A stretch of DNA of 49,545 nucleotides from Gemmatimonadota bacterium (GTDB lineage: Bacteria; Gemmatimonadota; Gemmatimonadetes; Longimicrobiales; RSA9), in contig JADGGV010000001.1 of assembly GCA_019689775.1 (NCBI GenBank), positions 1-49,545 of the forward strand. Reading direction: 5' to 3'. Made by a program: the position numbers and the translations under genes. Under the pieces are notes generated by a model. It worked only from the letters and a program-made list of their open reading frames with translations, did not search any database and was not told the DNA's origin. Every line of letters begins with the position of its first letter. The stretch's first letter is position 1. Below are positions 12,588-49,326 of this stretch, piece after piece.

Positions 12588-12597
12588 CGGCCGTCAC

Positions 12598-14444: not shown

Positions 14445-14480
14445 GGTCGGCGGGGCCTCCGAACACCGTCCTCTCGGTCG

Positions 14481-14510: not shown

Positions 14511-14573
14511 GGAGACCGGGCCGCCGCCACGGCGCGCGGACCGAGCCCGCGCCCCTGGAATCGCCTCGACGTA

Positions 14574-15005: not shown

Positions 15006-15027
15006 GGCGTGGCGGGCGCGGGCGCGC

Positions 15028-31337: not shown

Positions 31338-31478
31338 TCGGTACAGTTCCAGATCGAGAAGAACGGTTCCCCACGGGCCTCGCGCCGCCGCGCCGGGGCT
31401 CGTTACCGTCGGCGCGGGTGCAGCATTCAGGCCAGGATGGGTCGGGGAGTCGGTGTCGGATTCGTCTACTATAACGCC

Positions 31479-31523
31479 CCACCCCCCGCACGCACGACAT
31501 TATCGCCGCGCGACGGGGGGTGG
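31479..31523. other. 10-bp GC stem with a 25-nt loop in the rplI-rsfS spacer
   Basis: The element is ccaccccccg-N25-cggggggtgg. It is the most prominent structure in the 219-nt non-coding gap. Confidence 0.4.
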
Positions 31524-31556
31524 ACGATTTCGACCTCGAGGCCAGGGTCCGTGGGA

Positions 31557-32024: not shown

Positions 32025-32036
32025 GGTCTCACTCCC

Positions 32037-32954: not shown

Positions 32955-32958
32955 GCGA

Positions 32959-33180
32959 TCAGTCCGCGTACCGCCTCACGTACGGCAGGAGCGCCAGGTA
33001 ACGGGCCCGCTTGACCGCGGTCCCGAGCTGACGCTGATGCCGCGCACACATCCCCGTCATCCGCCGGGCGAGGATCTTCCCCTGCTCGGTCACGAAACGG
33101 CCGAGCGTCTTCTCGTCCTTGTAGTTGATCAGCCGGATGCCGTTCTCGCACATCGGGCAGTTCTTCGCGGCGCGACGCAT
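32959..33180 (-). CDS. rpsR: 30S ribosomal protein S18
   Basis: The sequence [51 protein letters not shown] is typical of S18. Confidence 0.95.
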
Positions 33181-36038: not shown

Positions 36039-36311
36039 TCACCATCCCTCGGCGAGCACGACGAGGAGAAAGATGAGGACGAGCGGGATCGGCGTGGCGG
36101 CCAGGAGCCACATCCGTCGCGGCTCGAAGCGCAGGTGCATGTAGTACAGGGCGACGAGCAGCGCCTTCCACACCGCGAGCGCGAGCAGGATCGTGATCAA
36201 TACCGCCGCGTGCAGCCCGGAGAGGAACGCGACGCCCAGCTCCGCGATCGTGAGCACGAAGAGAATGAGCCAGATCGCGTAGTAGTTCGGCTGCTTGTGC
36301 GCGGTCTCCAT
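36039..36311 (-). CDS. Cytochrome c oxidase subunit IV family protein (90 aa)
   Basis: The sequence METAHKQPNYYAIWLILFVLTIAELGVAFL...ALLVALYYMHLRFE has three TM helices and matches the bacterial subunit IV pattern. The tracked ORF extends to 36464, but I prefer the ATG at 36311. Confidence 0.8.
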   Translation of the reverse strand: METAHKQPNYYAIWLILFVLTIAELGVAFLSGLHAAVLITILLALAVWKALLVALYYMHLRFEPRRMWLLAATPIPLVLIFLLVVLAEGW

Positions 36312-36322
36312 CTTCGCCCCAG

Positions 36323-36976
36323 TCAGATGAGGTAGACAATGGTGAACAGGATGATCCAGACGAGATCCACGAAGTGCCAGTAGAGGCCCATGATCTCGAT
36401 CCCGCCGTGGTTCTCCTGCGTGTAGCGGCCGCGGAATGCCCGGATACTGGTGAAGATGAGGCACAGCACGCCGATCGTGACGTGCGCGCCGTGGAAGCCC
36501 GTCAACGTGTAGAACGTGGCGCCGTAGAGCGGGCCGCCGAGAACCGCCGTGCCGCCGTGCCGGCCGACCGCGTGGTACAGCGAGGCCATCGGGAGCATCC
36601 CCTCGCTCGCCAGCTTCGTGTATTCCACTCCCTGGATCGACAGGAACAGGATGCCCAGCGCCGTGGTGGCGAGCAGGAAGGTGCGAAGCCCCTTCTGGTC
36701 GCCGGCCTCGATCGCCGCGAACGCCTTCACCATCGAGACGCTGCTACAGATCAGGACGAACGTGTTGAACGCCGTGAGCGGCACGTTCAGCACCGTCCCC
36801 GGAGGCGGGTACGCCGTCGGGTGCGCGAAGCGCAGAATCACGTAGGAGCCGATGAGCCCCGAAAAGAACATGACCTCGGAGAGCAGGAACACCCACATCC
36901 CGAGCTTCATGTTGTAGACGCCCATGCCCGGCATTGGCCGGCGGTCGGGGTAGGTCAGCGCGGCAGCCTGGCTCAT
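36323..36976 (-). CDS. ctaE: Cytochrome c oxidase subunit III
   Basis: The motifs are GMWVFLLSEVMFFSGL, FYTLTGFHGAHVTIG and GLYWHFVDLVWI. Confidence 0.93.
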   Translation of the reverse strand: MSQAAALTYPDRRPMPGMGVYNMKLGMWVFLLSEVMFFSGLIGSYVILRFAHPTAYPPPGTVLNVPLTAFNTFVLICSSVSMVKAFAAIEAGDQKGLRTFLLATTALGILFLSIQGVEYTKLASEGMLPMASLYHAVGRHGGTAVLGGPLYGATFYTLTGFHGAHVTIGVLCLIFTSIRAFRGRYTQENHGGIEIMGLYWHFVDLVWIILFTIVYLI

Positions 36977-37005
36977 GGCCGGCCTCCTCTCTCACCGGTT
37001 GAGGT

Positions 37006-38781
37006 TCAATTGCCGGCGGGCGCCAGGGTCGGCGCCGGCGACGGCCGCTCCAACGGGGGGCGGTCCTGCGGGAGATAATCCACCGGCGAGTCGGGCGAGC
37101 TGTACTCGTACGGCCCGCGGTAGACGATCGGCGTGACCTCGAAGTTCCCATGCGGCGGCGGCGAGGGCGCGGCCCACTCGAGCGTGTTGGCGTGCCACGG
37201 GTTCGTCTCCGCCTTCCGGCCCTTGAAGAGGCTCCACAGGAAGTTGAACACGAAGATGAGCTGGGTCGCGCCAAGGAGGAACGCGTTCACCGAGACGAAC
37301 TCGTTCATCGGCTGCACCGGCTGGAGGTGCGGGTACTGCGTCGGGTCATAGAGCCGGCGCATCATCCCGGCGATGCCGAGCAGGTGCATCGGGAAGAACG
37401 TGAGGTTGAAGAAGATGAACGTCAGGAAGAAGTGAATCTTGCCTAGCGTCTCATTCATCATGCGCCCGAACATCTTCGGGAACCAGTATGTAATTGCCGC
37501 GAAGATGCCGAACAGGGATCCGCCGAAGAGCACGTAATGGATGTGCGCGACCACGAAGTAGGTGTCGTGGAGCGGGATGTCCACGGGTGTGGCGGCTACG
37601 AACATGCCGGACAGTCCGCCGATCACGAACATCGAGACGAAGGCGAGCGCGTTCAGCATCGGTACGTGGAAGCGGATGCTGCCGCCCCAGAGCGTGCCGA
37701 GCCAGTTGAAGGTCTTGATGGCGGAGGGCACCGCGATCACGAGCGTCGAGACCATGAAGTAGCCGCCCAGCACGGGGTTCATGCCGCTCATGAACATGTG
37801 GTGGCCCCAGACGATCCAGCCGAGGAACGCGATGGCGATCATCGCGCCGACCATGGCGGGGTACCCGAAGATCGGCTTGCGGGCGCCGTTGGCGAGGATC
37901 TCGGAGACGAAGCCCATGGCCGGGAGGATCAGGATGTAGACCTCCGGGTGGCCGAAGAACCAGAACATGTGCTGCCAGAGGAGCGGCTGGCCGCCGTTGG
38001 CCGGCAGGAAGAAGGTCGTCCCGATCGTCTGATCGAAGTAGAGCAGGATCAGCGCGCCGGTCAGGATCGGGATGGCAAGCAGGATGAGGATCGCGGTGAT
38101 GAAGAGCGCCCAGACGGGGAGCGGCAGGCGGAACCAGGTCATCCCGGGCGCGCGCATGTTGATGACGGTAGTGATGTAGTTCACCGCGCCCATGAGCGAG
38201 GAGAAGCCGAGGATGATGAGGCTGAGGCACCAGAGCTGCTGGCCGGTGTGCACGCCGCTGTACTCCGGCACGGCGCTGAGCGGCGCATAGGAGGTCCAGC
38301 CGGCGCCGGCGGAGCCGCCGGCGACGAGGAAGCTCGCGAGCATCATCAGCCCGGCCGGCACCGCGGTCCAGAAGGACGCCATGTTGAGGCGCGGGAAGGC
38401 CATGTCGGGCGCGCCGATCTGGAGCGGGATGAGGTAGTTCGCGAAGACGCCCACGAGCAGCGGCATGATGGCGAAGAAGATCATGAACGTGCCGTGCATC
38501 GTGACGAGGGCGTTGTAGAACTCGGGGAGCATGACGCCGCCCGGCGCCTTGGCGTCACCGAGGATGGCGCCGCCGGGGATCGGGCGTCCCGGCCAGCCGA
38601 GCTGCCAGCGCATCGTCATGGCGAGAAGGCCACCGACGAGCAGGAAGAACAGGCTCATGAAGAGGAACTGGATCCCGATGATCTTGTGATCGGTCGAGAA
38701 GATGTATTTCCGGACGAAGCTGCGGTCGTCGTGGTGCAGCGCGTGCGCCTGAGCTTCGTGCGGCAGGGCGATCGTGCTCAT
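37006..38781 (-). CDS. ctaD: Cytochrome c oxidase subunit I (A-type haem-copper oxidase)
   Basis: The motifs are TDHKIIGIQFLF, WFFGHPEVYILILP, WGHHMF and VVAHIHYVLFGG. Confidence 0.96.
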   Translation of the reverse strand: MSTIALPHEAQAHALHHDDRSFVRKYIFSTDHKIIGIQFLFMSLFFLLVGGLLAMTMRWQLGWPGRPIPGGAILGDAKAPGGVMLPEFYNALVTMHGTFMIFFAIMPLLVGVFANYLIPLQIGAPDMAFPRLNMASFWTAVPAGLMMLASFLVAGGSAGAGWTSYAPLSAVPEYSGVHTGQQLWCLSLIILGFSSLMGAVNYITTVINMRAPGMTWFRLPLPVWALFITAILILLAIPILTGALILLYFDQTIGTTFFLPANGGQPLLWQHMFWFFGHPEVYILILPAMGFVSEILANGARKPIFGYPAMVGAMIAIAFLGWIVWGHHMFMSGMNPVLGGYFMVSTLVIAVPSAIKTFNWLGTLWGGSIRFHVPMLNALAFVSMFVIGGLSGMFVAATPVDIPLHDTYFVVAHIHYVLFGGSLFGIFAAITYWFPKMFGRMMNETLGKIHFFLTFIFFNLTFFPMHLLGIAGMMRRLYDPTQYPHLQPVQPMNEFVSVNAFLLGATQLIFVFNFLWSLFKGRKAETNPWHANTLEWAAPSPPPHGNFEVTPIVYRGPYEYSSPDSPVDYLPQDRPPLERPSPAPTLAPAGN

Positions 38782-38824
38782 GTCCCTTCCTCTGTGCTCG
38801 GGAAGCGCGGCGTCGCCGCGGTGG

Positions 38825-39517
38825 TCACCGGGCCGCGTCGGCGGTCCGCACCTGCGTCTGCTGCTGGACCCAGCGCTGGAAATCCTCCTGCGACTGCACG
38901 ATCACGCGCCCCCGCATGCGGTAGTGACCGAGGCCGCAGAGCTCGGCGCAGCCGAGGACGAACTCTCCGGTCTTCGTCGCCTGGAACCAGGCGGGGATCT
39001 CCATGCCGGGGACGGCGTCCTGCTTCAGCCGGAACTGCGGGAGGAAGAACGAGTGGATGACGTCCTCGGCGCGGAGCGTGATGTGGACGGGGACGCCGAC
39101 GGGGATGTCGAGCTCGTTACGCTTCTCGAAGTCGTCGGCGGTGCCGAAGCGGCCGTCGAGCCCCGGGTAGGTGACGTGCCACTCGAACTGCTTCGCCGTG
39201 ACGTTGAGCTCGAGGCCGCCGCGCGGGAAGCGGGCCGGCTCCTTGACGGCGTACCAGAGCGGCTGGCTCGCGAGGCCGAGGAAGAAGACGATCGCGAACG
39301 TGGCCGTCGTCCAGATGATCTCGAGCCGCGTGTTGCCGTGGCTGAAGATGGCCCGGCGACCCTCACGGGCCCGGTACTTCACGATGTAGTAGACCAGCAG
39401 GACCTCGACGAGCACGAAGACGATGCCCGTGATCCAGAGGATCGTGAAGAAGAGCGAGTCGATGCGCGGGCCGAACGTCGAGACGTCCTCCGGGAGCGGC
39501 ATCCACCAGCGTTCCAT
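38825..39517 (-). CDS. ctaC: Cytochrome c oxidase subunit II (CuA site present, no fused cytochrome c domain)
   Basis: Two N-terminal TM helices are followed by DVIHSFFLPQF and the CuA motif CAELCGLGHYRM. The 230-aa protein contains no CxxCH. Confidence 0.92.
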   Translation of the reverse strand: MERWWMPLPEDVSTFGPRIDSLFFTILWITGIVFVLVEVLLVYYIVKYRAREGRRAIFSHGNTRLEIIWTTATFAIVFFLGLASQPLWYAVKEPARFPRGGLELNVTAKQFEWHVTYPGLDGRFGTADDFEKRNELDIPVGVPVHITLRAEDVIHSFFLPQFRLKQDAVPGMEIPAWFQATKTGEFVLGCAELCGLGHYRMRGRVIVQSQEDFQRWVQQQTQVRTADAAR

Positions 39518-39552: not shown

Positions 39553-40425
39553 TCAGCGGGCCGCGCCGTGGCTGGTGCCGGGGTGGGCGTGGGCGGCCAC
39601 GCGCGGGGCGCCGGGCGCCGGCGCGCGAGCGGTCGCGTTACCGTCGTAGGTGAAGTCCAGCGTCTTCGTCTCGTTGGGGCCCAGCGTCACCTGCTGCGTC
39701 TTGGTGCCGTACTTCTCGTGCCACGCGGTGATCGTGTAGGTGCCCGGCGGCAGGTTGCCGATCGTGTACTTGCCGCCGTTGGCGCTGGCCGCGAAGTACG
39801 GATGGTCGAAGACGGCGATGGTGGCGTGCATCCAGTTGTGGACGTTGCACTCCACGGGGATGTCCGGCTCGGCCACGTCGAACGTCCGCGCGGTCTCCAT
39901 CGTCGTCGGCTGGCTGATGTTGAACGGCCGGTTCTTCGTCGGCTTCGTCTTGATGTTGTGGAGGATGCCGTCGGCGTTCTTGATGGTGAGCTTCTGGCCG
40001 ACCTGCATGACCACGACGTGCGGCTTGTAGATGCAGCCGTCCTGGTCGATCTCGGCGGGTTGCGCCGGCGGCGCGTAGGTCTGGGCCGGCAGCCCCTCGC
40101 TCACGTAGACGACGACGTTCTCGAGCCCGCCGTCGTCGACGACGACCTCGTCCGTCGTCACGCCGCCCGGGTGCTTCTGCGCGCACACCGGCTCGCTCGA
40201 CATGTCGATGGGCGTGCCCGCCGGCGGCGTCCCGGTGAACCGGATCGTCCCGGTGAGGGTGGCCGCGTCGGCGACCGGCGCCGCCGGGGCGGCCTTCTGC
40301 TCGCCCGCCGGGGCGGCGCCGGAAGCGGCCTGCTCGCCGTCGGGTCTCGAGCCGCCGCACGCGGCCAGCGCCGCGGCCGCCACGATCACGAAAAGCTTCT
40401 CGACGCGCGCCATACGGTTCGACAT
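39553..40425 (-). CDS. Lipoprotein with a cupredoxin-like domain (putative type-1 Cu site) and a CarboxypepD_reg-like C-terminal domain
   Basis: A lipobox is present (VAAAALAAC). Candidate Cu ligands are ILHNIK and ECNVHNWM (C-x2-H-x2-M). The C-terminus reads KYTIGNLPPGTYTITAWHEKYGTKTQQVTL. GGAGG lies upstream of the ATG at 40425. The tracked ORF extends to 41115. Confidence 0.7.
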   Translation of the reverse strand: MSNRMARVEKLFVIVAAAALAACGGSRPDGEQAASGAAPAGEQKAAPAAPVADAATLTGTIRFTGTPPAGTPIDMSSEPVCAQKHPGGVTTDEVVVDDGGLENVVVYVSEGLPAQTYAPPAQPAEIDQDGCIYKPHVVVMQVGQKLTIKNADGILHNIKTKPTKNRPFNISQPTTMETARTFDVAEPDIPVECNVHNWMHATIAVFDHPYFAASANGGKYTIGNLPPGTYTITAWHEKYGTKTQQVTLGPNETKTLDFTYDGNATARAPAPGAPRVAAHAHPGTSHGAAR

Positions 40426-40451: not shown

Positions 40452-42095
40452 TCAGTCGCCCTTGCTGCCGCCCTGCTTCTCCCTCCGTTGCGCCCGGGCC
40501 ACCACCAGGATGCCGAACCCGGCGGTGAGCGCGGCGGTGGCGATCGGTGTGGTATAGACCGTCTTCGGCGTCGGCTCGTCGAGGTAGACGTGGTACCAGG
40601 CGCTGACCGCGCCCTTCGTCCCCGACTCGCCGTTCGAGCCGTCCCAGGCGAAGAACGCGATCGGGATCGCCTCGCCCTGCACCAGGGTGAGCCGGTCGCC
40701 GCCGCCCGGTGCCGCGAGCGGGCGGGTGAGCACGAGGCGCCACTGGCCGCGGTCGAAGACCGCCTGTGACCGGAGCGTGGACGGACCCGGGATCGGCGTG
40801 ATGTTCGCCAGGCCGCGCGCCGTGGCCTCGACGGCGGCGGGCGCATCGCTGCGCCAGTACCAGAGATAGACGGGGTTGCGGGCGTCGCCCATGAGGAAGT
40901 ACGGGCGCTCCATCCCCTGCGGGATCTCGCGCGGGAACTGGACGGCGAAGGCGTCGCCGAGCGCCGGCACGGCCGGGGTTGCGCCGGCGGGTGACGCGCG
41001 ATCCGCCGGCGCGGGCGGGGCGGCGTCGGAGCCGCTCGTCCCGCTCGTGGCCGCGGCCGGCGCGGCGGCGGAGTCCTCCTTCGGCCCCATGACCTCCGTC
41101 ACCCTCCGCTGCCACTCCGACCAGCGAGGGTCGGGACTCCTCGAGCGATCGTCCCAGACCAGCCGGATCGCGAGGTCACGGCCGTTGTGGAGCGCCTGGA
41201 CCCAAACGGCGTCGACGGCCGGCGAGAACCAGCGCGGCTTGATGATCACCTGCCCGACGAGCGGGATGTAGGCGCGCTCCGCGACGTTCCAGGCGGAATC
41301 GTCCGGGCTGGTCGGCAGCCGCCCCTCCACGAGGCGCGCACGGATCACCTCGGGCGGCTCCGGCGGCTCCTTCGGCGAGAGGCTCCGGACGTACTGCGCC
41401 ACGTGCCAGAGCTGCTCGTCCGTGACCACCTTCGCCGCGAGCATGTCGTTGAACGACGGCATGGGCGTGCCGTCGAGCCCGGTGCGGAGGCGACGATAGA
41501 TGTCCTCGACCGAGCCGCCCCCGCGGAACCGCCAGTTCTCCTCGAGGTTGGCCGGGCGGATCGGGAAGTGGGAATCGTCCTCCTGCGTGCTCGCCGAGGG
41601 GCCGTCGCCCCGGGCGGCGCGGCCGTGGCACTTGAAGCACTCCAGCTTCTCGTACGTCCGGCGGCCGTCTTCGATGGCGGCGGCATTCTCGGGCGGCGCC
41701 TTCGAGAAGGCGACGACGTCCGGCTTCTGCTGGAACGCGGTGGAGAACGTCTTGATGTACTGCACGAGCGCATCACGGTCGCTCTCGGAGAGCACGTCCG
41801 TCCACCCCGGCATCGCCGAGCCGGGCATGCCGTCGTCGATCACGTGACGCAGGTCGGCGTCCGTCGGCACGGAGCCGCTGCTCGTCGTGCGGACCTTGAA
41901 GAGCGCGCGGGTGAAGTCCCGCGGCCGTGGGAGCATGGTGCTCGCCGCCGGCCCGTCGCCCTTGCCGTCGGAGCCGTGGCAGCCGGCGCACCACTTCTCG
42001 TAGATCGCCTTTCCGGCCGGCGCCTGCTGCCCGGCGGCCGGCGCGGCCGCGAGCGCCACGAGCAGCGCGGCCGTCCCCGCGAGGCGCGCGCTCAC
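40452..42095 (-). CDS. Di-haem c-type cytochrome fused to an EB_dh (ethylbenzene-dehydrogenase-like, haem-b-binding) domain, with a C-terminal TM anchor
   Basis: A signal peptide is followed by the haem-c motifs CAGCH and CFKCH. The C-terminal half (AFAVQFPREIPQGMERPYFLMGDARNPVYLWYWR) resembles the EB_dh/DOMON-like family. The terminal helix is PIATAALTAGFGILVVA. The GTG start at 42095 overlaps the upstream stop (GTGA). Confidence 0.75.
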   Translation of the reverse strand: MSARLAGTAALLVALAAAPAAGQQAPAGKAIYEKWCAGCHGSDGKGDGPAASTMLPRPRDFTRALFKVRTTSSGSVPTDADLRHVIDDGMPGSAMPGWTDVLSESDRDALVQYIKTFSTAFQQKPDVVAFSKAPPENAAAIEDGRRTYEKLECFKCHGRAARGDGPSASTQEDDSHFPIRPANLEENWRFRGGGSVEDIYRRLRTGLDGTPMPSFNDMLAAKVVTDEQLWHVAQYVRSLSPKEPPEPPEVIRARLVEGRLPTSPDDSAWNVAERAYIPLVGQVIIKPRWFSPAVDAVWVQALHNGRDLAIRLVWDDRSRSPDPRWSEWQRRVTEVMGPKEDSAAAPAAATSGTSGSDAAPPAPADRASPAGATPAVPALGDAFAVQFPREIPQGMERPYFLMGDARNPVYLWYWRSDAPAAVEATARGLANITPIPGPSTLRSQAVFDRGQWRLVLTRPLAAPGGGDRLTLVQGEAIPIAFFAWDGSNGESGTKGAVSAWYHVYLDEPTPKTVYTTPIATAALTAGFGILVVARAQRREKQGGSKGD

Positions 42096-42898
42096 CGCGC
42101 ACCTCCTTCCGCGGTGTCCCACGTCCGCGGCGTCCACCCGGTCTGGTCGTAGAGGAAGATGATGACGGCCCAGATCTCCCGCTCGGTGAGGAAGTCCTCC
42201 CAGGCGGGCATCGCGGAGTTCCATGGCGTGCCCTCCTTCGGCAGGCCCCGTCCGCCCTTGGCGATCCGCCAGAAGACGAAGCTCTCCGTGAGCTGGGGAA
42301 TCGTACCGTTGTCCGTGAAGTCGGCCGGCGGCGGGTTGAACCCGTGGGCGAAGTGCCCCTTGCCGTTGAGCTGGTCGCCGTGGCAGGCGACGCAGTTCTG
42401 GTAGTAGACGCGGCGGCCTTCCTCGACGTGGTCGCGCAGGTTCCCTTCCTTGCGCAGCGGGTTCTCGAGCCCCGCCAGCGTCATGGTCTTGCCGCGGAAC
42501 GTGATGGTGGACGGCGGCGCCGGGTGGATCGAGCGCAGGTTCGGCGGCGCCTCGACGGAGGGCCGGACCTGCCGGTAGGTGATGAACCCGGCGAGGAGCG
42601 GGACGGTCACGAGGAGCGCCAGTCGATAGAGGCGCTGGCTCGGGTCGACCAGCACACGCTGGATCGGCGCCTTGAACGCCCGCCAGCGATCCTCCGTCGC
42701 GCTGACGTAGAGCAGGACGCCGACGGCGACGGTCAGCATGTACTGGAGCAGCACCGTATGTGGGACGGGCGCGCTCTTCACGCCGAGCAGCGGCGGGATG
42801 TAGGCGATGCCGAAGCGGAACAGCAGGTACGCGACGGCCAGGATCAGCAGCGCCTGCACGAACGGATGGGAGAGTCGGCTCTTCACGACGTCCCTCAC
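42092..42898 (-). CDS. Membrane-anchored mono-haem c-type cytochrome (three N-terminal TM helices)
   Basis: The haem-c motif is CVACHGDQ, and AMPAW supplies a candidate distal Met. The probable GTG start at 42898 overlaps the upstream stop (GTGA). An alternative GTG lies at 42886. Confidence 0.75.
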   Translation of the reverse strand: MRDVVKSRLSHPFVQALLILAVAYLLFRFGIAYIPPLLGVKSAPVPHTVLLQYMLTVAVGVLLYVSATEDRWRAFKAPIQRVLVDPSQRLYRLALLVTVPLLAGFITYRQVRPSVEAPPNLRSIHPAPPSTITFRGKTMTLAGLENPLRKEGNLRDHVEEGRRVYYQNCVACHGDQLNGKGHFAHGFNPPPADFTDNGTIPQLTESFVFWRIAKGGRGLPKEGTPWNSAMPAWEDFLTEREIWAVIIFLYDQTGWTPRTWDTAEGGAR

Positions 42899-43683
42899 TT
42901 TCGGGAGGCGAGATAGCGGACGAGCGCCTCGAGCTGCGCGGCGCTGAGCCGCTCCCCGAAGTCCTTCGGCATGATCCCGGCGACCTTCTCGTAGCCCTTC
43001 GCGGTGTCGGCGTTCGGGTCGAGGATCGACCGGCGGATGTAGTCGGCGGTCCTCGTGGCGCCGATGTGGTCGAGCGGCGGCGCGATCGTCGTCCCCTCGC
43101 TGCCGAGGTGGTGGCAGGTGAGGCAGGTGTTCTCGCGGAGGAGCGCGACCGGGTCGGTCGTCGCGCTGCGGGCCGGCGCGGCCGGGGCCACGCCCTGCGC
43201 CGGCGCCGGCGCGGCGGCCTTCACGTCCGCGGCCGAGACCGTGACCTCCCCGCCCTGGCTCTCGAGGAAGGCGACGAGGGCCCAAATCTGCGCCGGCGAG
43301 AGCGTGCGGCTCATGTCGGGCATGATCGGCTGATAGCCCGGGACGACGTACGCGGTCGGCTTGACCAGCGACTCGTGCAAGTAGTCCTTGCACGTCATCC
43401 CCGGCTTCCGCGTGCCGCAGCGGGCGCCGATCGTGCCCTGGCCGTGCTCATCGGTGAGGAGGTTCGGCGCGCGCGTGCCCAGCCCGTGGCACGCGGTGCA
43501 GCCGCCCGCGCCGTTGAACAGCTCCTCGCCGGCGGAGACGAGCTGCTCCGGGGTGACGTCGCCCGAGAGGTTCATCTCCCGGGGGACCTCGGACTCCACC
43601 TGGGGGATGGCGTTGCAGACGACGGTGTAGAGCCCGATCGTGCCGAGCACGACGGCGGCGATCCGGAGATTCGTCGCCCCCAT
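42895..43683 (-). CDS. Membrane-anchored di-haem c-type cytochrome
   Basis: The N-terminal TM helix is LRIAAVVLGTIGLYTVV. The haem-c motifs are CTACHGLG and CLTCHHLG, each followed by a Met-containing segment (PIMPDM and AGIMPKDF). Confidence 0.8.
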   Translation of the reverse strand: MGATNLRIAAVVLGTIGLYTVVCNAIPQVESEVPREMNLSGDVTPEQLVSAGEELFNGAGGCTACHGLGTRAPNLLTDEHGQGTIGARCGTRKPGMTCKDYLHESLVKPTAYVVPGYQPIMPDMSRTLSPAQIWALVAFLESQGGEVTVSAADVKAAAPAPAQGVAPAAPARSATTDPVALLRENTCLTCHHLGSEGTTIAPPLDHIGATRTADYIRRSILDPNADTAKGYEKVAGIMPKDFGERLSAAQLEALVRYLASRK

Positions 43684-43731
43684 ACGGATGCGTCCCCTCC
43701 CTCCGGGGCGAGGCCCCGGACCGTAGGAGCG

Positions 43732-45540
43732 TCAGTCTGCGCCGCCGGCGATGGCGAGCTCCCGCTCCGGCGCCCGCTCGGCGCCCGCCGCCGCGGGCGG
43801 GGCGTACGTGGACTTCTCGACGAGCCCGCCGAGCCAGAAGACGATGGCGATGAGCGCCAGGAAGATGAGCACGCAGACGCTGATCATCTTCGATGCGTAG
43901 CCGAGGGCCGGCGTGGCGGCCCACGGACTCGTGTCGCGCATGACGTTCCAGACGTGCCAGTGCTGGCGGATGCCGCTGCGGGCGAAGCCCATGAGGCCCA
44001 TGAGCCAGGTGAACGTGACGGCCAGCACGAGGAGGGCGTACTGCGAGCGCGCGGGCATCTGGCCCCAGCGGATCGCGCCGCGCGATTCGGCGCCGCGGAG
44101 CATCAGCACGTCCAGGACGAGGACCGTGACGATCGTCACGATCACGGAGAGCACCTGGTAAACGCTGAAGCCGATGCGGACGATCGCGGTGACGAAGTAG
44201 CCGTAGACGCCGAAGAAGATCACGATGGCGGCGGAGATGGCGAACAACGCCGCCTGGACGCGGGTAGCGGCGCGCGCCCAGGAGACGCTCGGCCGCTTGT
44301 TCGCCCGCCGATAGAGCAGGTACGACAGGAAGGTGCTGAGGATCATGAGGTTGACGGCCGTGTTCTTGGCGCTCATGACCCCGAGGAACCCGAGGAGCGG
44401 ATGGTGGGAGCCGCCCATGGCGGCCTGCTCGGCGCGCGAGGCGATCATGGTGTGCGGCGTCGACCAGACGAGCACGCCGAGGACGAGGACGCCGAGGATC
44501 CAGCGCGTGTAGGGGGTGAAGCGCTCGGCGCCGGGGATCCGCGCCATGCCGACCCAGAGATAGTAGTTGCCCGCAAGGAACAGCACGCCGATGAGGAAGG
44601 CCTGGATGATCCAGAGCCAGCTCATGAAGCCGCCCATCATCGTGATGCCCATCCCCTGGTCGTACTGATAGATCTCCCGCCCGAGCCAGTAGCCGGCGAA
44701 GGGGAGGATGAGCAGGCTGCTGATCGCGATGAAGTTCCCGACGTACCCCATCCAGTCGTAGTGGGCGCGCTCCTCGTCGGTCCGCGCCGCCAGGAAGCGG
44801 TAGGCGGCGTACGCGCCGACGATCGAGCCGCCGAACACGACGTTGGCGATCAGGCGGTGAATGTTGATCGGCATCCAGGTCGCGTTGGCCATCGCGCTCC
44901 AGAGGCGGATCGTCTCCGGCGCGGTGTCGGTCGAGACCTGGGGCGGCGGGCTCATCATGTAGCTGAGCCAACTGTCGGCGATGAACATGACGGCGGTGCC
45001 CCAGAGGTTCAGGAGCACGCCGAGCCCGAGGTGGATCTTCTTGCGGATGCCGTCCTTCAGGGATTCCCAGCCGTAGTAGTACAGGTAGAGCGTGAACGAC
45101 TCGAAGAAGAACAACCCTACGTAGACCCACATGGAGACGTGGAATATCGTGCTCATGTAGGTCCAGAACTTCGGGTAGAGCGTACTCAGGAAGAAGACGA
45201 GTATCGCCCCCCAGATGGCCGTGGCGCTGTAGGCGATGAGGAGGAGTCGGGTAAACTCCTTCGCCAGCTTGTCGTAGCGCTTGTCGGTGCCGAAGATGCC
45301 GATCGCCTCGACGGTGACCGCGAAGAGGGGGACGCCGAGCACGAAGGCGGCGAACATCAGGTGCACCTCGGCCGCGATCCAGATCGCGCCGCGCCCGCCG
45401 ACGAGCGGGAAGTTGCCGTAGTCGCGCGCGGCGGCCGCCTGTTGGGCGAACGCCGGGACCGCCACCGCACCCAGCATCAGGAGGACGAGGCCGCCGAAAC
45501 CGGCCAGCCGAGGGAACGAGACCCGCGACTCAGGCGTCAT
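43732..45540 (-). CDS. Cytochrome bd ubiquinol oxidase subunit I (CydA)-like membrane protein, divergent, with no partner CydB
   Basis: 602 aa and polytopic. By-eye matches to CydA blocks are AAEVHLMFAAFVLG (TM1 His), GLFFFESFTLYLYYYGW, KKIHLGLG...FIADSWLSYMMSPP and NIHRLIANVVFGGSIVGAYAAYRFL. There is no long Q-loop. Extra C-terminal helices are present. Confidence 0.7.
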   Translation of the reverse strand: MTPESRVSFPRLAGFGGLVLLMLGAVAVPAFAQQAAAARDYGNFPLVGGRGAIWIAAEVHLMFAAFVLGVPLFAVTVEAIGIFGTDKRYDKLAKEFTRLLLIAYSATAIWGAILVFFLSTLYPKFWTYMSTIFHVSMWVYVGLFFFESFTLYLYYYGWESLKDGIRKKIHLGLGVLLNLWGTAVMFIADSWLSYMMSPPPQVSTDTAPETIRLWSAMANATWMPINIHRLIANVVFGGSIVGAYAAYRFLAARTDEERAHYDWMGYVGNFIAISSLLILPFAGYWLGREIYQYDQGMGITMMGGFMSWLWIIQAFLIGVLFLAGNYYLWVGMARIPGAERFTPYTRWILGVLVLGVLVWSTPHTMIASRAEQAAMGGSHHPLLGFLGVMSAKNTAVNLMILSTFLSYLLYRRANKRPSVSWARAATRVQAALFAISAAIVIFFGVYGYFVTAIVRIGFSVYQVLSVIVTIVTVLVLDVLMLRGAESRGAIRWGQMPARSQYALLVLAVTFTWLMGLMGFARSGIRQHWHVWNVMRDTSPWAATPALGYASKMISVCVLIFLALIAIVFWLGGLVEKSTYAPPAAAGAERAPERELAIAGGAD

Positions 45541-46849
45541 GGCGGAGGAAGAAGGGGGTGCGTTTCGAGAAGTCGACGGGGAGCGCCCGCCGCACCTCGT
45601 CGAGGAGCTCGGGCGTGACCTCGGCGCGGCCGTGCTCGCGGGCGAAGCGCTCGACGCGAGCGACGACGACGGCGCGAACGAAGCTCGGGATCCGGTCGAT
45701 GCGCCGGCGCGCCTCGCGGGTCCAGGCGAGCTCGTGGCGGGCGGCGGCGCCGTAGGTCACGGGACGGCGCGGCTCGATCGGCGGCAGCATGCCGGAGGGC
45801 TCGTAGGCGCAGGCGCCGTCGGCGGCGAGCACGTCGCCGGTTTCGGCGTACGCACGGGCGCGGCAGCCGCCGCAGACGTGCCGGTACTCGCACGCGCCGC
45901 AGCGCCCGCCGAGGCGGCCGGCCCGCAGCTCGGCGAGGAGGGGCGAGGCGCGCCAGACAGTGGCGAAGTCGTCTTGCCGGAGATCCCCGGCCACGAGTGG
46001 CAGGTACGGGCAGGGCGTGAGCTTCCCCTCCGGGGTGATCCGGCAGTACTGCACGCCGCAGGGGCAGCGCGTCGCGTAGTTGAGGAGCGGCGAGTCAGGG
46101 TCGTCCTCGAGCGCGATGCGCATGATCTGCGGGTGGCACTTCGAGCGGACCATCATGCGTCCGCGGTACTCGCGCTCGAGCCGGACGAGCCGCCGGAGGA
46201 CGGCCTCGTTCTCGGCGGGCTCGAGGCCGCGCATGGCACCGCCTCGTCCGGTGGCGACGAGGAAGTAGACGTTGAAGGCGACGGCGCCGCGGGCGGCCGC
46301 CCACTCCGCGAGGGCTTCAAGCTCGTCGCAGTTCCCGCGGGTCAGGGTGGTCTGGACGATGAAGTCGAGGTCGGCGGTGCGGAGGCGCTCAACCGCCGCC
46401 AGGGTGTCCGCCAGCGCGCCCGCGCCATGGCGGAACCGGTCGTGGTAGCGCGGCCGGAGCGAGTCGATGCTTACGGCGACGCCCTGGACGCCGGCGCCCT
46501 GGAGCGAACGGATCCGCTCGGCGCTGAGCAGCGTGCCGTTCGTGCCGACGACCACGGTCGCGCCCCGGGCGGCGGCGTGGGCGGCGATCTCCTCGAGGTC
46601 CGCACGGAGCAGCGGCTCGCCGCCGCTCAGGATGAACAGAGGCGCCGGATTCACCCCGAGGATCTCGTCCGTGATGCGCCGGCACTCGGCCGTCGTGAGG
46701 TCGGACCCGGTCGCGTGCCAGGCGCCCGCGGCGATGTAGCAGTGCGAGCACGCCAGGTTGCACCGCCGGGTCAGGTTCCAGGCGACGACGTGTGGGACGG
46801 CGGCGTCCGCACGCGCGTCCATAGGGGGCGCCTCGAGCGAGCCCGCCAT
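45530..46849 (-). CDS. Radical SAM/SPASM protein of the AhbC/AhbD/NirJ type, fused to a C-terminal PCP_red-like domain
   Basis: The N-terminal cluster motif is VVAWNLTRRCNLACSHCY (CxxxCxxC). The SPASM-like Cys cluster is CPCGVQYCRITPEGKLTPCPY...CGACEYRHVCGGCRARAY. The C-terminus reads LAWTREARRRIDRIPSFVRAVVVARVERFAREHG. The start could be 46849, 46822 or 46888. Its 3' end overlaps the CydA-like ATG by 11 nt. Confidence 0.78.
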   Translation of the reverse strand: MAGSLEAPPMDARADAAVPHVVAWNLTRRCNLACSHCYIAAGAWHATGSDLTTAECRRITDEILGVNPAPLFILSGGEPLLRADLEEIAAHAAARGATVVVGTNGTLLSAERIRSLQGAGVQGVAVSIDSLRPRYHDRFRHGAGALADTLAAVERLRTADLDFIVQTTLTRGNCDELEALAEWAAARGAVAFNVYFLVATGRGGAMRGLEPAENEAVLRRLVRLEREYRGRMMVRSKCHPQIMRIALEDDPDSPLLNYATRCPCGVQYCRITPEGKLTPCPYLPLVAGDLRQDDFATVWRASPLLAELRAGRLGGRCGACEYRHVCGGCRARAYAETGDVLAADGACAYEPSGMLPPIEPRRPVTYGAAARHELAWTREARRRIDRIPSFVRAVVVARVERFAREHGRAEVTPELLDEVRRALPVDFSKRTPFFLRHDA

Positions 46850-46892
46850 GACCACATCCCGCCGGCTTCCGCCCGGGACGCCGCGCATCGCC

Positions 46893-48920
46893 TCAGGCCC
46901 CGCGAGAGTCGGCCAGGGACTCGATCGCGCGCTTCGCCTCCTGCGGCGTCACCCCCTTGAAGTCGACCGGACACTTCTCCATCGACGCCTCGATGTCGCG
47001 GATCGGGCAGCGCGTGACGCCGGACGAGCGGGCCTCGTCGATGAACCGGCGCATCTCGGGAGAGAGCGCCTCGACGCCCTCCGCCTCCGCCTTGAGTTGC
47101 TTGGCCTGAAGCTCCTTGAACATCACGAGCATGGTGTCGAGGTCGAACTCGTCGGCCTCGATCATCGCCTGGCGGTTTTCGTCCATGACCCGGGTGGTCA
47201 CGCGCCAGATCCCGTGCTCGCGGGCGAAGCGCTCGACGGTGTTGCGGGCGAGCGGCCGGGCGATCAGCGGGACGAGCGAGAGGCGCTCGAACGCCTCGGC
47301 CGTCCACACGACGGGGTCCCGGGCGGTCCGCGGCCGCAGCGAGACGTGCCCGGTGTACGGGCAGCGTGCCTCCACCATCGGCACGTCCGGCTCCGGGTCG
47401 GCGTCGTGCCCCTCGACGACGGTCCGGCGCATCGCCTCCTCGGCCTTCAGCTCTGCCAGCGCCAGCTCCTCGGCGGTGCCGATCCCCATGATGAGCTGCA
47501 TGTGCGTGGGGAGGAGCTTCCGGATCGCCTCGTCGAGGCGCTCGTTGGTGACAATCGGCAGCACCGGATCGCGGCCGTCCGGCGATGGTCCGCCGGCGCC
47601 GCCGTCGGCGGGAGCGCCGTAATGCTCGAGGACGAACTCCTCGACGGCCTTCCGGGCGATCCCGAGCGCGAACGGCGGGACGCGGAGGATGCGCACCTCC
47701 GCCTCCGGCGCCCACTCCAGCCCGGTCTGCCCGTCCTCCTCGATCCAGGGGATATCCTCCGGGTGCACCGCCTCCGTCCCGACCAGGAGCACGCTGGACG
47801 GCGCCAGGCGGACCAGGTTCTCGGCCTGCGAGCCGAGGTCGGTCCCCGCGATCCGGTGCGAGCCGTGGCGCGCGATGACGAGGAGCGACGGGCGAATCTC
47901 CTGCGCCCATTGGAGGATCACCTGGAACGGCTTGCCGATCAGGATCTGCGTGTGCAGCTCGACGTCCGGGAACTCCGACGCCATCACCTGCGCCCGCTTG
48001 ATGTTCGCCTGCGTCAGCTTGAGGAGTCCCTTGTCGATGATGTTGTTGTGAAGCTCCTCCTGCTCCTCGAACTTGAAGACCTTCGAGGCCTGGACCGACA
48101 GCACGTCCTTGATGTTGTGGAAGACGGCGTGGTGGTACTCGACGTCGAACGCGCTGCACACGTAGAGCACGGCCTCGAACTCCCGAGCCAGCTCCAGCGC
48201 GACGCGCAGCGCCTTGTACGCGTACGCGGAGCCGTCCACGCAGACCATGAACCGGCCGCCCCGCAGCGGGGTGGCGTCGCGCACGATCAGGACGTCCTTC
48301 TCCACGCCGCGGACCACCCGCGCGACCACGCCGCCGAGCTGGCTGTAGGCCTGCCGCCCGATCCCGTGCGCCCCGATGGCGACGAGGTCGTAGCGCCGGC
48401 CCGTCGAGCCGGCCAGCTTGTCCTCCGCCGCCTCGTCCTCCGCCTCGATGCGCCCGTTCGCGCCCAGGCGAACGTCGCCGCGGACGCGCGCGCCACCGTC
48501 GTACTTGAACGCGATGTTCGGATCGAAGCCGATCAGGCTCGGGAGCCGCCCCTCCCCGCGGTTCGCCTCCCGGATGATCTCCTCGTAGTTGATCCCCTCG
48601 AGGAGCTGGCGGGTCAGCGGGACTCCCGCCTCCCGACAACGCACGTCGACCTGGTCCAGGAAGCTGTCCGAGATGAGCTGGAGCCCCTTCTCGATCAGCT
48701 TGTCGTGGACCTTGCGTTGCCGCTTGATCTCCTCAGGGGTCTGGAACCGTGCGGGGAGGCCGGTCTCGAGCTGGCGGAAGCGGATGTCGTGCAGGCGGGC
48801 GGCGTAGACGTGGGTGCCTGTGATGCGCCCCCGTGAGCGGCGTGCCAGCTCGATGGCGCGATCCACGGCCCAGTCCGAGCACGCCGAGTTGTCAACGGGG
48901 ACCAGGATTTCCCGATACAT
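46893..48920 (-). CDS. Tandem universal stress protein (USP) domains fused to two PCP_red-like domains
   Basis: USP domain 1 is MYREILVPVDNSACSDWAVDRAIELA...DLVAIGAHG...VLIV. USP domain 2 is FMVCVDGSAYAYKALRVALELA...LLVIARHGSH...VLLV. The two PCP_red-like blocks are LEWAPEAEVRILRVPPFALGIARKAVEEFVLEHYG and VVWTAEAFERLSLVPLIARPLARNTVERFAREHG. GAGG lies upstream of the ATG at 48920. The tracked ORF extends to 49184 through an Arg-rich, non-protein-like stretch. Confidence 0.75.
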   Translation of the reverse strand: MYREILVPVDNSACSDWAVDRAIELARRSRGRITGTHVYAARLHDIRFRQLETGLPARFQTPEEIKRQRKVHDKLIEKGLQLISDSFLDQVDVRCREAGVPLTRQLLEGINYEEIIREANRGEGRLPSLIGFDPNIAFKYDGGARVRGDVRLGANGRIEAEDEAAEDKLAGSTGRRYDLVAIGAHGIGRQAYSQLGGVVARVVRGVEKDVLIVRDATPLRGGRFMVCVDGSAYAYKALRVALELAREFEAVLYVCSAFDVEYHHAVFHNIKDVLSVQASKVFKFEEQEELHNNIIDKGLLKLTQANIKRAQVMASEFPDVELHTQILIGKPFQVILQWAQEIRPSLLVIARHGSHRIAGTDLGSQAENLVRLAPSSVLLVGTEAVHPEDIPWIEEDGQTGLEWAPEAEVRILRVPPFALGIARKAVEEFVLEHYGAPADGGAGGPSPDGRDPVLPIVTNERLDEAIRKLLPTHMQLIMGIGTAEELALAELKAEEAMRRTVVEGHDADPEPDVPMVEARCPYTGHVSLRPRTARDPVVWTAEAFERLSLVPLIARPLARNTVERFAREHGIWRVTTRVMDENRQAMIEADEFDLDTMLVMFKELQAKQLKAEAEGVEALSPEMRRFIDEARSSGVTRCPIRDIEASMEKCPVDFKGVTPQEAKRAIESLADSRGA

Positions 48921-49297
48921 TCTCGCCTCGATCCAGCGCAGGGAATCCGCGGAAGCACGGTCATTTCCGGGCCCGGCGCGAGATCGGACGGGTGCGCGGC
49001 ACGAAGAGGTCCCAGGCAAGACACCGAGGGGGTCCCGCTTCCGCCAGTGGCGCCCGAAGCGAACCTTCGGACGCGGCTGCACAGTCACCGTCTCGCGAAG
49101 ACCGCAGCGGAAAGACGCGTCGCTTCTGCCGCAAAACAGCGGGTCGGCCGGGCGCGAGCGCCCGAGCCGGCCTGTCATCGGCACCGGTCGAGGTCTTGCT
49201 GTGCGACGCCGCCAGGTCCCGGAGGGCGGGGCGGCAAAGAGATGGCAGCGAGCGAGCTCGCCTGCGGTCGAAGCGGTCTTTGGTTGCGGATGAGGCG

Positions 49298-49326
49298 ATA
49301 ATAAGGAGCGGCGCGAGGGCTGTCAA
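49298..49326 (-). promoter_or_regulatory. Near-consensus sigma70-type promoter upstream of the respiratory locus
   Basis: The minus strand reads TTGACA-N17-TATTAT. Such a match is very improbable by chance in roughly 70% GC DNA. It lies about 370 nt upstream of the USP-gene ATG. Confidence 0.6.

Follow-up and report, generated by a model that had tools for sequence, protein, structure and literature searches.

The window, which is the whole stretch of 49,545 nucleotides analyzed here, carries on its minus strand a string of genes for a cytochrome bd-like subunit, three cytochromes c, a copper lipoprotein and an aa3 oxidase. Upstream of this string lies a sigma-70-like promoter (49298..49326, TTGACA-17-TATTAT, 11/12), a consensus match only, which is the sole promoter-like site in the region 34.5-49.5 kb. 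The first gene (46893..49184) encodes a protein with two Usp domains and a PCP_red domain (Pfam Usp 1.9e-33, PCP_red 3e-14); its true start is probably located further downstream, the homologue at locus L001 having 682 aa. It is followed by a radical SAM/SPASM protein of the haem-modifying AhbD/NirJ type (45530..46888), which matched Radical_SAM (4e-26), SPASM and, at its C-terminus, PCP_red in Pfam; with the NCBIfam models it scored 290 bits for NirJ2 and 278 bits for AhbD haem b synthase, in neither case reaching the cut-off. The stop of this gene overlaps by 11 nt the start of the gene for a CydA-like membrane subunit of 602 aa (43732..45540), and three cytochrome c genes then follow: c1 (42895..43683), c2 (42092..42886) and c3 (40452..42095). 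For these genes, the coordinates, strand and gene content given by the sequence-only reading were right, including the 602-aa reading frame.

Further downstream, a lipoprotein (39553..40425) combines a type-1-copper cupredoxin domain with a CarboxypepD_reg beta-sandwich. Its copper ligands H156, C193, H196 and M199 (full-length numbering) reached at least 90% conservation across 59 loci and did not vary among 56 homologues. The best Foldseek matches of its AF2 model (pLDDT 85) were amicyanin, plastocyanin, pseudoazurin and the cupredoxin domain of NirK. The next genes encode CoxB, the CuA subunit II, with no fused cytochrome c (38825..39517; Pfam COX2/COX2_TM; NCBIfam CoxB 2.4e-48, above cut-off), CoxA, the haem-copper oxidase subunit I (37006..38781; Pfam COX1 3.9e-153), CoxC, subunit III (36323..36976; Pfam COX3 8e-26), CoxD, subunit IV (36039..36311; Pfam COX4_pro 2e-13), of about 90 aa judging from the length of the L001 homologue, and the haem o synthase CtaB/CyoE (35114..36031; NCBIfam cyoE_ctaB 4.5e-81, above cut-off). 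Intergenic gaps from the CydA-like gene to the cox genes did not exceed 48 nt, and no terminator-like site was found on the minus strand in 34.5-49.5 kb, these gaps included. The bd-like module, the cupredoxin lipoprotein and the aa3 oxidase apparently constitute one operon. The sequence-only reading did not mention this shared setting with a cupredoxin and an aa3 oxidase.

Membership of the 602-aa protein in the bd superfamily, proposed earlier from its resemblance to CydA, was upheld by Pfam, by sequence search of the PDB and by Foldseek. The protein matched Cyt_bd_oxida_I (PF01654) with E=1.2e-21 (77 bits, cut-off 26), the match being confined to the N-terminal half and covering only profile positions 8-241 of 418. 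With phmmer, solved CydA chains were recovered at 5e-10 (5doq_A) and 2e-6 (9r2g_A), and with a profile six solved CydA sequences were matched at 2.5e-13 to 5e-7. The AF2 model (pTM 0.83) comprised an N-terminal helix (residues 10-31) and 13 long helices; the best ten PDB matches of this model were CydA with probability 1.0, CydB coming next. Helix 10-31 may be a signal peptide with cleavage at AFA-QQ. The protein contains no CxxCH, and tblastn of the window returned no second CydA-like sequence, the gene itself being the only match.

The blocks cited in the sequence-only reading aligned as it had noted: H60 with H19 of E. coli, FFFES/YYYGW with the E107 block, H170 with H126 and H228 with H186. 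The equivalents of H19, H186 and M393 (H60, H228 and M389) were all invariant in the family alignment. H60, the TM1 His that serves as axial ligand of the high-spin active-site haem, was invariant in 102 sequences; with Y140, E147 and H170, likewise invariant, it sits at active-site or proton-path positions of canonical bd. The low-spin haem keeps its His/Met pair (H228, M389), and the cytoplasmic proton path is kept in part (E147, H170). The position of E99 is occupied by a Tyr. Among the haem ligands, the third one, E445, is alone replaced, by the invariant Ser522 of the family, so that the canonical di-haem active site is probably not intact. Other key residues are E78, Y154/Y156/W158, E371, N393 and R521, together with H363, H380 and H529, three conserved residues with a predicted position on the periplasmic side.

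The absence of the Q-loop was confirmed by the early end of the Pfam match and by the AF2 model, in which a two-helix insertion is followed at the Q-loop site by a loop of 28 residues (360-387). The GRQPW block, previously reported as not found, appears to be degenerate rather than absent: the stretch R525-Q-H-W528-H529-V-W corresponds to RQPWTVW of 9r2g_A, and R525, W528 and H529 were invariant in 102 family members. The stretch alone is not significant, and we consider that a degenerate block is probably present. As for the missing partner, Cyt_bd_oxida_II (PF02322) gave no match in the 43 stop-to-stop frames of at least 100 aa in 38.7-49.5 kb, and the coding space around the CydA-like gene is fully assigned to other genes. 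The earlier statement that no CydB lies nearby thus stands; reading frames of CydX size are beyond a profile search, but there is no room for CydX because the gap behind the gene is only 48 nt.

All five CxxCH sites and the EB_dh domain announced for the three cytochromes were found. Subunit c1 (262 aa) is a dihaem cytochrome c (CTACH, CLTCH) with an N-terminal TM anchor, and c2 (264 aa) is a monohaem cytochrome c (CVACH) with three N-terminal TM helices. Subunit c3 (547 aa) consists of a signal peptide, a dihaem cytochrome c domain (CAGCH, CFKCH), an EB_dh domain (Pfam E=1.6e-16) and a C-terminal TM anchor. The dihaem, EB_dh and C-terminal anchor parts of c3 had been described correctly; the correction concerns its N-terminus, a signal peptide, which leaves the C-terminal helix as sole anchor. 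Each of the five CxxCH was conserved in at least 95% of the sequences across 68-81 homologous loci, and so were the Met-Pro distal motifs. In addition, c3 matched NCBIfam DMSO_red_II_gam (1.3e-32) and, in the PDB, 6h5l_B (1.8e-57) and EbdC (2ivf_C, 4.7e-10). We take 6h5l_B to belong to an anammox hydroxylamine-oxidoreductase-like complex. The EB_dh domain is described here as EbdC/NxrC-like, with a putative haem b. Concerning the coupling of the genes, the 48-nt gap and the GTGA overlap of c2 and c3 (start 42095) held, and the second GTGA overlap, between c1 and c2, did not: here a GTG start at 42886, which leaves 8 nt between the two genes, is more likely, and the resulting 264-aa product is an exact match to NCBI MBX6362264.1.

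The association of the CydA-like gene with c1, c2 and c3, which the sequence-only reading had left to comparison, was collinear in 80/80 genome loci from Gemmatimonadota, Methylomirabilota/Rokubacteria and Myxococcota. The longer order CydA-like-c1-c2-c3-cupredoxin-CoxB-CoxA, with CoxBACD, was likewise collinear in some 70 loci of Gemmatimonadota and in 9 of Rokubacteria/Methylomirabilota. In Gemmatimonadota, the AhbD/NirJ-like radical SAM gene was directly upstream of the module, itself directly preceded by the Usp/PCP_red gene in essentially all loci. Modules without cox genes occurred in Myxococcota and NC10 loci, and the cupredoxin lipoprotein also stands beside such modules (locus L076). 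A c1-like domain is fused to the CydA-like subunit in two natural proteins (P0121, P0129). Only one of the 80 loci had a second CydA-like copy within 10 kb on either side. In Nitrospira tepida, the homologue was alone in its genome neighbourhood.

This architecture has already been described. The OR-N2 subfamily (Murali, Gennis & Hemp, 2021) is characterized by 14 helices, no quinol site and an operon in which an EbdC homologue accompanies several cytochromes c, and OR-N was already tabulated for Gemmatimonadota (Murali et al., 2021). The published OR-N2 signature consists of H, Y, E, Y, Y, H, H, M/N, S/A and W (Murali et al., 2021, Supplementary Table 6). We made the assignment by signature residues and sequence identity. 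In 103 Nitrospira-type homologues, at least 13 of 15 signature positions were found at one constant offset, and none of these sequences matched the OR-N1 signature. In the window protein, the functional signature residues were identical (11/11) and were invariant in 101 relatives, the remaining four, hydrophobic positions showing conservative substitutions. Identity to a Nitrospira OR-N2 protein reached 48% over 564 aa. On these sequence grounds, the window protein is a member of OR-N2 from Gemmatimonadota. The core of the sequence-only reading, a bd-superfamily protein that lacks CydB and the Q-loop and acts with c-type cytochromes and an EB_dh haem-b domain, is supported. Since the architecture is published, the locus is biochemically uncharacterized and not, as proposed earlier, an undescribed respiratory enzyme. 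The accompanying statement that CydA-only bd-like proteins are known from sequence surveys alone, without biochemistry, agrees with papers from 2024-2026, which still call OR-N enzymes uncharacterized.

With OR-N2, the window locus shares the 14 helices, the lack of a quinol site, the cytochromes c and EbdC-like haem b subunit in the operon, the absence of a second CydA paralogue from it, and the residues equivalent to H19, E107, H126 and H186, the Y-x-Y motif, M/N at M393, Tyr for E99, Ser for E445 and the W. It differs from Nitrospira OR-N2 in forming a Gemmatimonadota clade at 44-48% identity, and the cupredoxin, CoxBACD-CtaB and radical SAM genes of its string are not mentioned in the main text of Murali et al. 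(2021). The family itself is thus not new; as new points, the collinearity with cupredoxin and CoxBACD, the upstream radical SAM gene, the fusions of CydA-like and cytochrome c domains and the degenerate GRQPW block are reported here. Compared with canonical CydAB(X) (qOR1-3; 6rx4, 5doq, 7nkz, 9r2g), the fold of the first nine-helix core, the H19/H186/M393 equivalents, the E107 and H126 proton-path residues and a degenerate RQxW are shared, whereas CydB and the Q-loop are missing, E99 is Tyr, E445 is Ser, two two-helix insertions and an N-terminal helix are added, and the presumed donor is a set of cytochrome c subunits instead of quinol. The OR-C family has likewise lost the quinol site, with haem c as presumed electron entry; however, its CxxCH lies within an 8-helix CydA paired with a CydA paralogue, whereas here the haems c are on separate subunits. 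The CydAA' type has a second CydA-like gene, unlike the window locus and 79/80 loci.

We favour, at a probability of about 0.55, the view that the OR-N2 module is an O2 reductase fed by cytochrome c and cupredoxin. The locus would produce a four-subunit membrane-bound bd-like oxidoreductase whose catalytic subunit is a single CydA-like protein, without CydB or CydA' partner. We infer that electrons do not enter from quinol at the Q-loop site; they would come from the periplasmic side through the five haems c and the one putative EB_dh haem b of the three membrane-anchored subunits, the co-encoded blue-copper lipoprotein probably acting as electron carrier. From there they would reach first the H228/M389 haem and next the H60 haem, the latter reducing O2 to water with protons taken from the cytoplasm. 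Physical association of the subunits is supported by the 80-locus collinearity and the CydA-like::c1 fusions, and the cupredoxin as a partner by the conservation of its copper ligands, its fold and its presence beside cox-less modules. O2 reduction is suggested by homology and by Nitrospira physiology, OR-N having been proposed in the literature as the terminal oxidase of Nitrospirales species without any other oxidase. With the module and the aa3 oxidase on one transcript, both oxidases would share a cytochrome c/cupredoxin pool. Some observations count against this reading: the third haem ligand E445 is a Ser, two cytochrome c oxidases co-transcribed without a cytochrome c reductase would be odd, and the OR-N1 paralogue, thought to pair with OR-N2 in Nitrospira/Nitrospina in the manner of CydAA', is absent from the window and from 79/80 loci.

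The main alternative, which we consider unlikely, is a quinol:cytochrome c/cupredoxin oxidoreductase, in which a bd scaffold would perform the function of complex III. In that case, the conserved periplasmic loop 360-387 (H363, E371, H380) would form a new site for menaquinol oxidation close to the H228/M389 haem, and the c haems and cupredoxin would hand the electrons on to the aa3 oxidase, whose genes follow directly downstream. The collinearity from the CydA-like gene to CoxA in the Gemmatimonadota and Rokubacteria/Methylomirabilota loci, the short gaps without terminator-like site and a CoxB without its own cytochrome c domain all agree with this, the layout being typical of operons combining complex III and an oxidase, for example ACIII followed by an oxygen reductase. 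Like ACIII or bc complexes beside haem-copper oxidases, the module is a multi-haem cytochrome c membrane unit directly upstream of cox; unlike them, it has no ActB/ActC, Rieske protein or cytochrome b, and no known motif predicts quinol oxidation. Pfam families for Rieske/cytochrome b and ActB/ActC were absent from the operon genes, the frames of 38.7-49.5 kb and the large ORFs of 16.9-35 kb. In a published survey, complex III was not recognizable in most Gemmatimonadota genomes: among 326 genomes, petB was present in 23%, ACIII in less than 10% and caa3 in 74%, cydA was called in 53% and cydB in only 29%, and its authors raised the possibility of novel complex III modules. However, among the supplementary-list entries that were cross-tabulated, petB was found in 3 of 16 cydA-only genomes, which is no depletion relative to the overall 23%. 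The Q-loop and quinol-binding residues are absent, and the invariant active-site His and cytoplasmic proton path have no obvious role in transfer from quinol to cytochrome c. Moreover, Nitrospira, with bc complexes but no haem-copper oxidases, possesses close homologues that carry these invariant residues too, and the module exists without cox genes in Myxococcota and NC10. That the OR-N2/cytochrome c/cupredoxin module serves Gemmatimonadota and Rokubacteria as their "missing complex III", transferring electrons from menaquinol to cytochrome c (cupredoxin) and produced as one unit with the aa3 oxidase it feeds, appears no more likely; if true, the complex III problem would have been solved a third time, in a way unrelated to bc1/b6f and ACIII.

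Cytochrome c could still be the donor if the H60 haem reduced another small oxidant, such as NO, nitrite, H2O2 or oxychlorine species, or served mainly in detoxification, to which we give a rather small chance. Canonical bd contributes to the tolerance of NO and peroxide, a role that has been raised as a question for OR-N as well. The remodelled active site (Tyr for E99, Ser for E445, extra periplasmic H363, H380 and H529) and the homology of the c3 dihaem domain to 6h5l_B, a cytochrome of solved structure, would be compatible with such a substrate. On the other hand, among the window ORFs scanned there were neither reductase genes, for nitrogen oxides or otherwise, nor such transport genes, and the module is linked to genes of aerobic respiration and haem o synthase. 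Very improbable is a non-catalytic module, a membrane electron wire or an assembly scaffold tethering cytochromes c and cupredoxin to aa3: co-transcription with cox genes and the loss of the third haem ligand fit this idea, but the haem ligands and the residues of the proton path do not vary between phyla whose proteins are 45-60% identical overall, and the module also exists without cox genes. An ordinary quinol-oxidizing cytochrome bd subunit I, as implied by the database name of MBX6362266.1 ("cytochrome ubiquinol oxidase subunit I") and the Pfam family match, is refuted by the lack of CydB, Q-loop and E445 equivalent, by 14 helices instead of 9 and by the cytochromes c in the operon. With regard to the active-site haem, a haem-copper-like site on a bd scaffold, with Cu next to this haem, was proposed for Nide0901.

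CydA-like, the 602-aa protein encoded at 43732-45540 on the minus strand, belongs to the bd superfamily, as the sequence-only reading had proposed. It matched the Pfam profile Cyt_bd_oxida_I with an E-value of 1.2e-21, over profile positions 8-241 of 418 only, and its sequence also matched solved CydA chains in a PDB sequence search. A profile of its family retrieved six CydA sequences from the PDB (2.5e-13 to 5e-7), with no significant alignment for the C-terminal half of the protein. An AF2 model built from 102 sequences (pLDDT 82, pTM 0.83) was matched in the PDB first by CydA chains, which took the ten best places, and next by CydB chains. The earlier claim that no CydB is encoded nearby was borne out: Cyt_bd_oxida_II found no match in the 43 open frames of at least 100 aa from 38.7 to 49.5 kb, and on this basis we rejected a cydB concealed there or disrupted by a frameshift. 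No second CydA-like sequence was found in the whole window, which led us to reject a CydAA' pairing; membership of the OR-C group was rejected because the CydA-like protein contains no CxxCH.

Murali, Gennis and Hemp (bioRxiv 10.1101/2021.01.16.426971; later ISME J) split the bd superfamily into qOR (the quinol oxidases), OR-C and OR-N, and described OR-N2 as CydA homologues of 14 helices that have no quinol site, often lack a second CydA paralogue, and share operons with several cytochromes c and an EbdC homologue. The OR-N2 residue signature is tabulated in their Supplementary Table 6, and their phylum table records OR-N for Gemmatimonadota, Methylomirabilota and Myxococcota. Our second homologue search led to Nitrospira-type proteins, 103 of which fit at least 13 of the 15 OR-N2 signature positions at one constant offset; none of the 103 matched the OR-N1 signature. 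With a Nitrospira tepida member of this set, CydA-like shares 48% identity over 564 residues, and the gene of this homologue is an orphan, having no operon partners there. In the 102-sequence alignment, CydA-like matches all 11 functionally labelled OR-N2 positions (H60, Y140, E147, Y154, Y156, H170, H228, M389, N393, S522 and W528), which are invariant or nearly so in the Gemmatimonadota and Nitrospira-like sets alike. As this architecture has been in print under its own name since 2021, and OR-N was already tabulated for Gemmatimonadota, the locus is a further member of the named, biochemically uncharacterised OR-N2 family and not a new kind. The earlier interpretation was essentially right, and the word "undescribed" has to be withdrawn. 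Later genomic papers identify OR-N2 with the "bd-like" putative terminal oxidase of the Nide0901 type from Nitrospira and describe its subunit composition and function as still unconfirmed; they also credit a copper-site proposal for Nide0901 to Lücker et al. (2010). In a 2026 paper on the structure of E. coli bd, OR-N is cited as a phylogenetic class only. The family is large, with at least 7,560 proteins at E-values below 1e-5 among the candidates examined, and 1,124 clusters at 50% identity with E-values below 1e-3.

The helices were mapped on the canonical nine-helix CydA using conserved residues, the AF2 model and the alignment. The model shows an N-terminal helix (10-31), which may be cleaved off as a signal peptide (end AFA-QQ), and then 13 long helices. 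The first six of these would be the equivalents of TM1-6, with H60 placed in TM1, Y140 and E147 in TM3, H170 in TM4 and H228 in TM5. A two-helix hairpin (295-359) appears to be inserted after them, and a 28-residue periplasmic loop (360-387), predicted with low model confidence, would stand where the Q-loop would be, in agreement with the earlier report that the Q-loop was missing. In this loop, H363 is near-invariant, and E371, G376-G377 and H380-P381 are invariant. M389 opens its helix, like M393 in E. coli CydA (E. coli numbering), and this helix would be followed by a further two-helix hairpin (422-480), by the helix carrying RQxWH (498-533) and by the last helix. Judged from the aligned residues, the protein retains the His/Met ligands of the low-spin haem, the axial His of the active-site haem (H60) and part of the cytoplasmic proton path. 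The position of the third-haem Glu ligand is occupied by an invariant Ser (S522) and that of E99 by an invariant Tyr (Y140). Also, the GRQPW block, which could not be found at that time, is probably present in a degenerate form: HMMER set R525-Q-H-W528-H529-V-W against RQPWTVW of 9r2g_A, and R525, W528 and H529 are invariant in the family. This equivalence is drawn from position and family invariance, the local alignment of the R525-W block by itself not being significant.

CydA-like lies in a string of 12 minus-strand genes that runs from about 49.3 to 35.1 kb, with gaps of at most 48 nt or overlaps. Based on Pfam and NCBIfam profile searches, this string comprises, in order, a Usp and PCP_red domain protein (46893-49184), a radical SAM/SPASM protein with a C-terminal PCP_red domain (rSAM, 45530-46888; nearest to NirJ2/AhbD, under both cut-offs), CydA-like, the TM-anchored dihaem cytochrome c1 (42895-43683), the 3-TM monohaem cytochrome c2 (42092-42886), the dihaem cytochrome c3 (40452-42095), a lipoprotein with cupredoxin and CarboxypepD_reg domains (39553-40425), the aa3-type oxidase CoxB, CoxA, CoxC and CoxD (36039-39517), and the haem o synthase CtaB (35114-36031). 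Proteins of the window, a 49,545-nt contig from a Gemmatimonadetes MAG, are present in NCBI as MBX6362263-66. A near-consensus sigma-70-like promoter (TTGACA-17-TATTAT) is located at 49298-49326 on the minus strand and is the sole such site within 15 kb, and no terminator-like hairpin was found on this strand down to 34.5 kb. The lone promoter-like site and the lack of a terminator suggest a single transcript of ~14 kb spanning the 12 genes. Two large ORFs lie 3' of ctaB, at 33926-34897(-) (323 aa) and 31437-33014(+) (525 aa), neither with a match in Pfam or NCBIfam; a counterpart of the former, a 321-aa gene without Pfam match, adjoins ctaB in the homologous locus L001.

The genome scan covered one genome per species and used an alignment of 8 close sequences, as 20 distant representatives proved too diverse. 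It gave 597 confirmed loci, and synteny was analyzed by tblastn of the twelve window proteins against the best 80 of these. Among them, the order Usp-PCP_red, rSAM, CydA-like, c1, c2, c3, cupredoxin, CoxB, CoxA, CoxC, CoxD was collinear in essentially every Gemmatimonadota locus with enough flank, and CtaB often joined the set. Nine Rokubacteria/Methylomirabilota loci (57-61% identity) kept the four-gene core, that is CydA-like, c1, c2 and c3, to the contig limits; seven of them had cupredoxin, CoxB and CoxA downstream, and in the other two (L071 and L075) the contig stops before this region. Radical SAM genes were present in none of the nine. One NC10 and one Myxococcota locus contained the four-gene core and had no cox genes. 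The association with cytochrome c genes is conserved in each of the 80 loci, which span three phyla. The Myxococcota locus (L076, MAG JASMLK010000138.1) showed two adjoining, divergently oriented bd-like modules (4284-9697 and 10001-16454), cox genes being absent within 10 kb. One is made of a cupredoxin-like lipoprotein, a 657-aa CydA-like protein and a dihaem-c/EB_dh protein, and the other of the four-gene core, a lipoprotein and a PCP_red protein.

The five CxxCH sites assigned earlier to the three cytochromes c were all recovered and, together with the Met-Pro motifs, are conserved in 68-81 homologous loci. Two details of that description had to be revised. The c2 start is most likely the GTG at 42886, leaving an 8-nt gap to c1 in place of the GTGA overlap, in agreement with the NCBI model and homologue lengths; and c3, with its dihaem c, EB_dh and C-terminal anchor as described, also carries an N-terminal signal peptide. 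M402 and K494, candidates on the EB_dh domain for the EbdC Met/Lys haem-b ligands, were less than 95% conserved in tblastn-derived columns. The role of c1 as a physical subunit is backed by natural fusions: the homologue P0121 (889 aa) joins a CydA-like protein to an entire c1-like dihaem cytochrome c including its anchor, and P0129 joins one to the first half of c1, with one C-terminal CxxCH domain. These fusions agree with the predicted cytoplasmic C-terminus of CydA-like. Two further homologues carry a CxxCH domain, C-terminal and single in P0125 and N-terminal in P0160.

The product of 39553-40425(-), annotated as a "carboxypeptidase regulatory-like domain-containing protein", is actually a lipoprotein with a type-1 copper cupredoxin domain followed by a beta-sandwich. 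Its His-Cys-His-Met copper ligand set is invariant among homologues, and the best Foldseek PDB matches of its AF2 model (pLDDT 85) were amicyanin, plastocyanin, pseudoazurin and the cupredoxin domains of NirK; it is a genuine cupredoxin. The gene separates coxB from the bd-like module and is also found beside bd-like modules without cox genes. As the Myxococcota module with the 657-aa CydA-like protein has its own cupredoxin-type lipoprotein, the copper protein belongs to the bd-like module and not to aa3 alone.

CydA-like has lost the Q-loop, the CydB partner and the third haem ligand, and genetically the module is obligately tied to five c haems, a type-1 copper protein and an EB_dh domain. 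Electrons would enter from the periplasm via the c haems, the EB_dh haem and the cupredoxin, and would pass through the H228/M389 haem to the H60 haem, where O2 would be reduced with cytoplasmic protons. We favour, with a probability of about 0.55, the module being an O2 reductase, on the basis of the conservation of active-site and proton-path residues and of the published inference on Nitrospirales, some aerobic members of which are without any other oxidase. The main rival, a quinol:cytochrome c/cupredoxin oxidoreductase, is suggested by the cox-linked operon, as a module constantly linked, in apparent co-transcription, to an aa3 oxidase that lacks a cytochrome c domain on its CoxB recalls complex III + oxidase operons, and by a survey of 326 Gemmatimonadota genomes which itself raised a novel complex III and found petB in 23%, ACIII in less than 10%, caa3 in 74%, and cydA in 53% vs cydB in 29% (PMC9426454). 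Among the cydA-only Gemmatimonadota genomes listed in its Data Set S4, petB occurred in 3 of 16, vs 23% overall, a count on lists of 25 entries that speaks for neither reading. If true, the rival reading would explain how aa3 is supplied in most Gemmatimonadota without bc1 or ACIII. However, known quinol-site motifs are absent, this reading would give no reason for the proton-path and active-site residues, identical invariant residues are found in Nitrospira, and the module also occurs without cox genes; we thus regard it as rather unlikely. The other readings score lower: use of another oxidant is improbable, a non-catalytic scaffold still more so, and a canonical quinol oxidase is hardly credible.

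Our data extend the OR-N papers in four respects: in two phyla, the module forms a tight operon together with an aa3 oxidase and a cupredoxin lipoprotein; a radical SAM/PCP_red gene set of haem type lies upstream; CydA-like proteins fused to cytochrome c occur naturally; and helix insertions can be read in the anatomy of the protein. The main text of Murali et al. contains none of these terms, and we found no paper on bd-like enzymes of Gemmatimonadota. The globally important nitrite oxidisers Nitrospira and Nitrospina are presumed to use OR-N enzymes as terminal oxidases. Such enzymes abound in soil Gemmatimonadota and Rokubacteria too, and none has been purified. The Gemmatimonadota gene set is compact and strongly conserved, and all likely partners can be named from it: three cytochromes c, a blue-copper carrier and a radical SAM enzyme of the haem-maturation type. 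Expression and cryo-EM would therefore have a well-defined target. Also, the public annotation "quinol oxidase subunit" raises "cytochrome bd" counts in genome surveys. Of the 326 genomes, 173 had a cydA call and only 95 a cydB call (PMC9426454, Data Set S4); as KEGG-based surveys score the OR-N2 gene as cydA, the 53% prevalence of "cytochrome bd oxidase" in Gemmatimonadota is probably inflated.

A PCP_red-domain gene set accompanies the bd-like module in the window, in L001 (920-9209), in the upstream flanks of L003-L070, in L069 (4676-9700) and in L076 (15543-16454), and may constitute a dedicated haem or cofactor maturation system. In the window, the rSAM stop overlaps the CydA-like start by 11 nt, and the Usp-Usp-PCP_red gene lies just upstream of rSAM. 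The set is partly present beside the module in one NC10 and one Myxococcota locus. In Gemmatimonadota loci, a ParA/Mrp-like ATPase, a small PCP_red protein, a ferredoxin and sometimes an ABC transporter are encoded 5' of Usp-PCP_red/rSAM, and a Chlor_dismutase (ChdC-like) gene flanks some of these loci.
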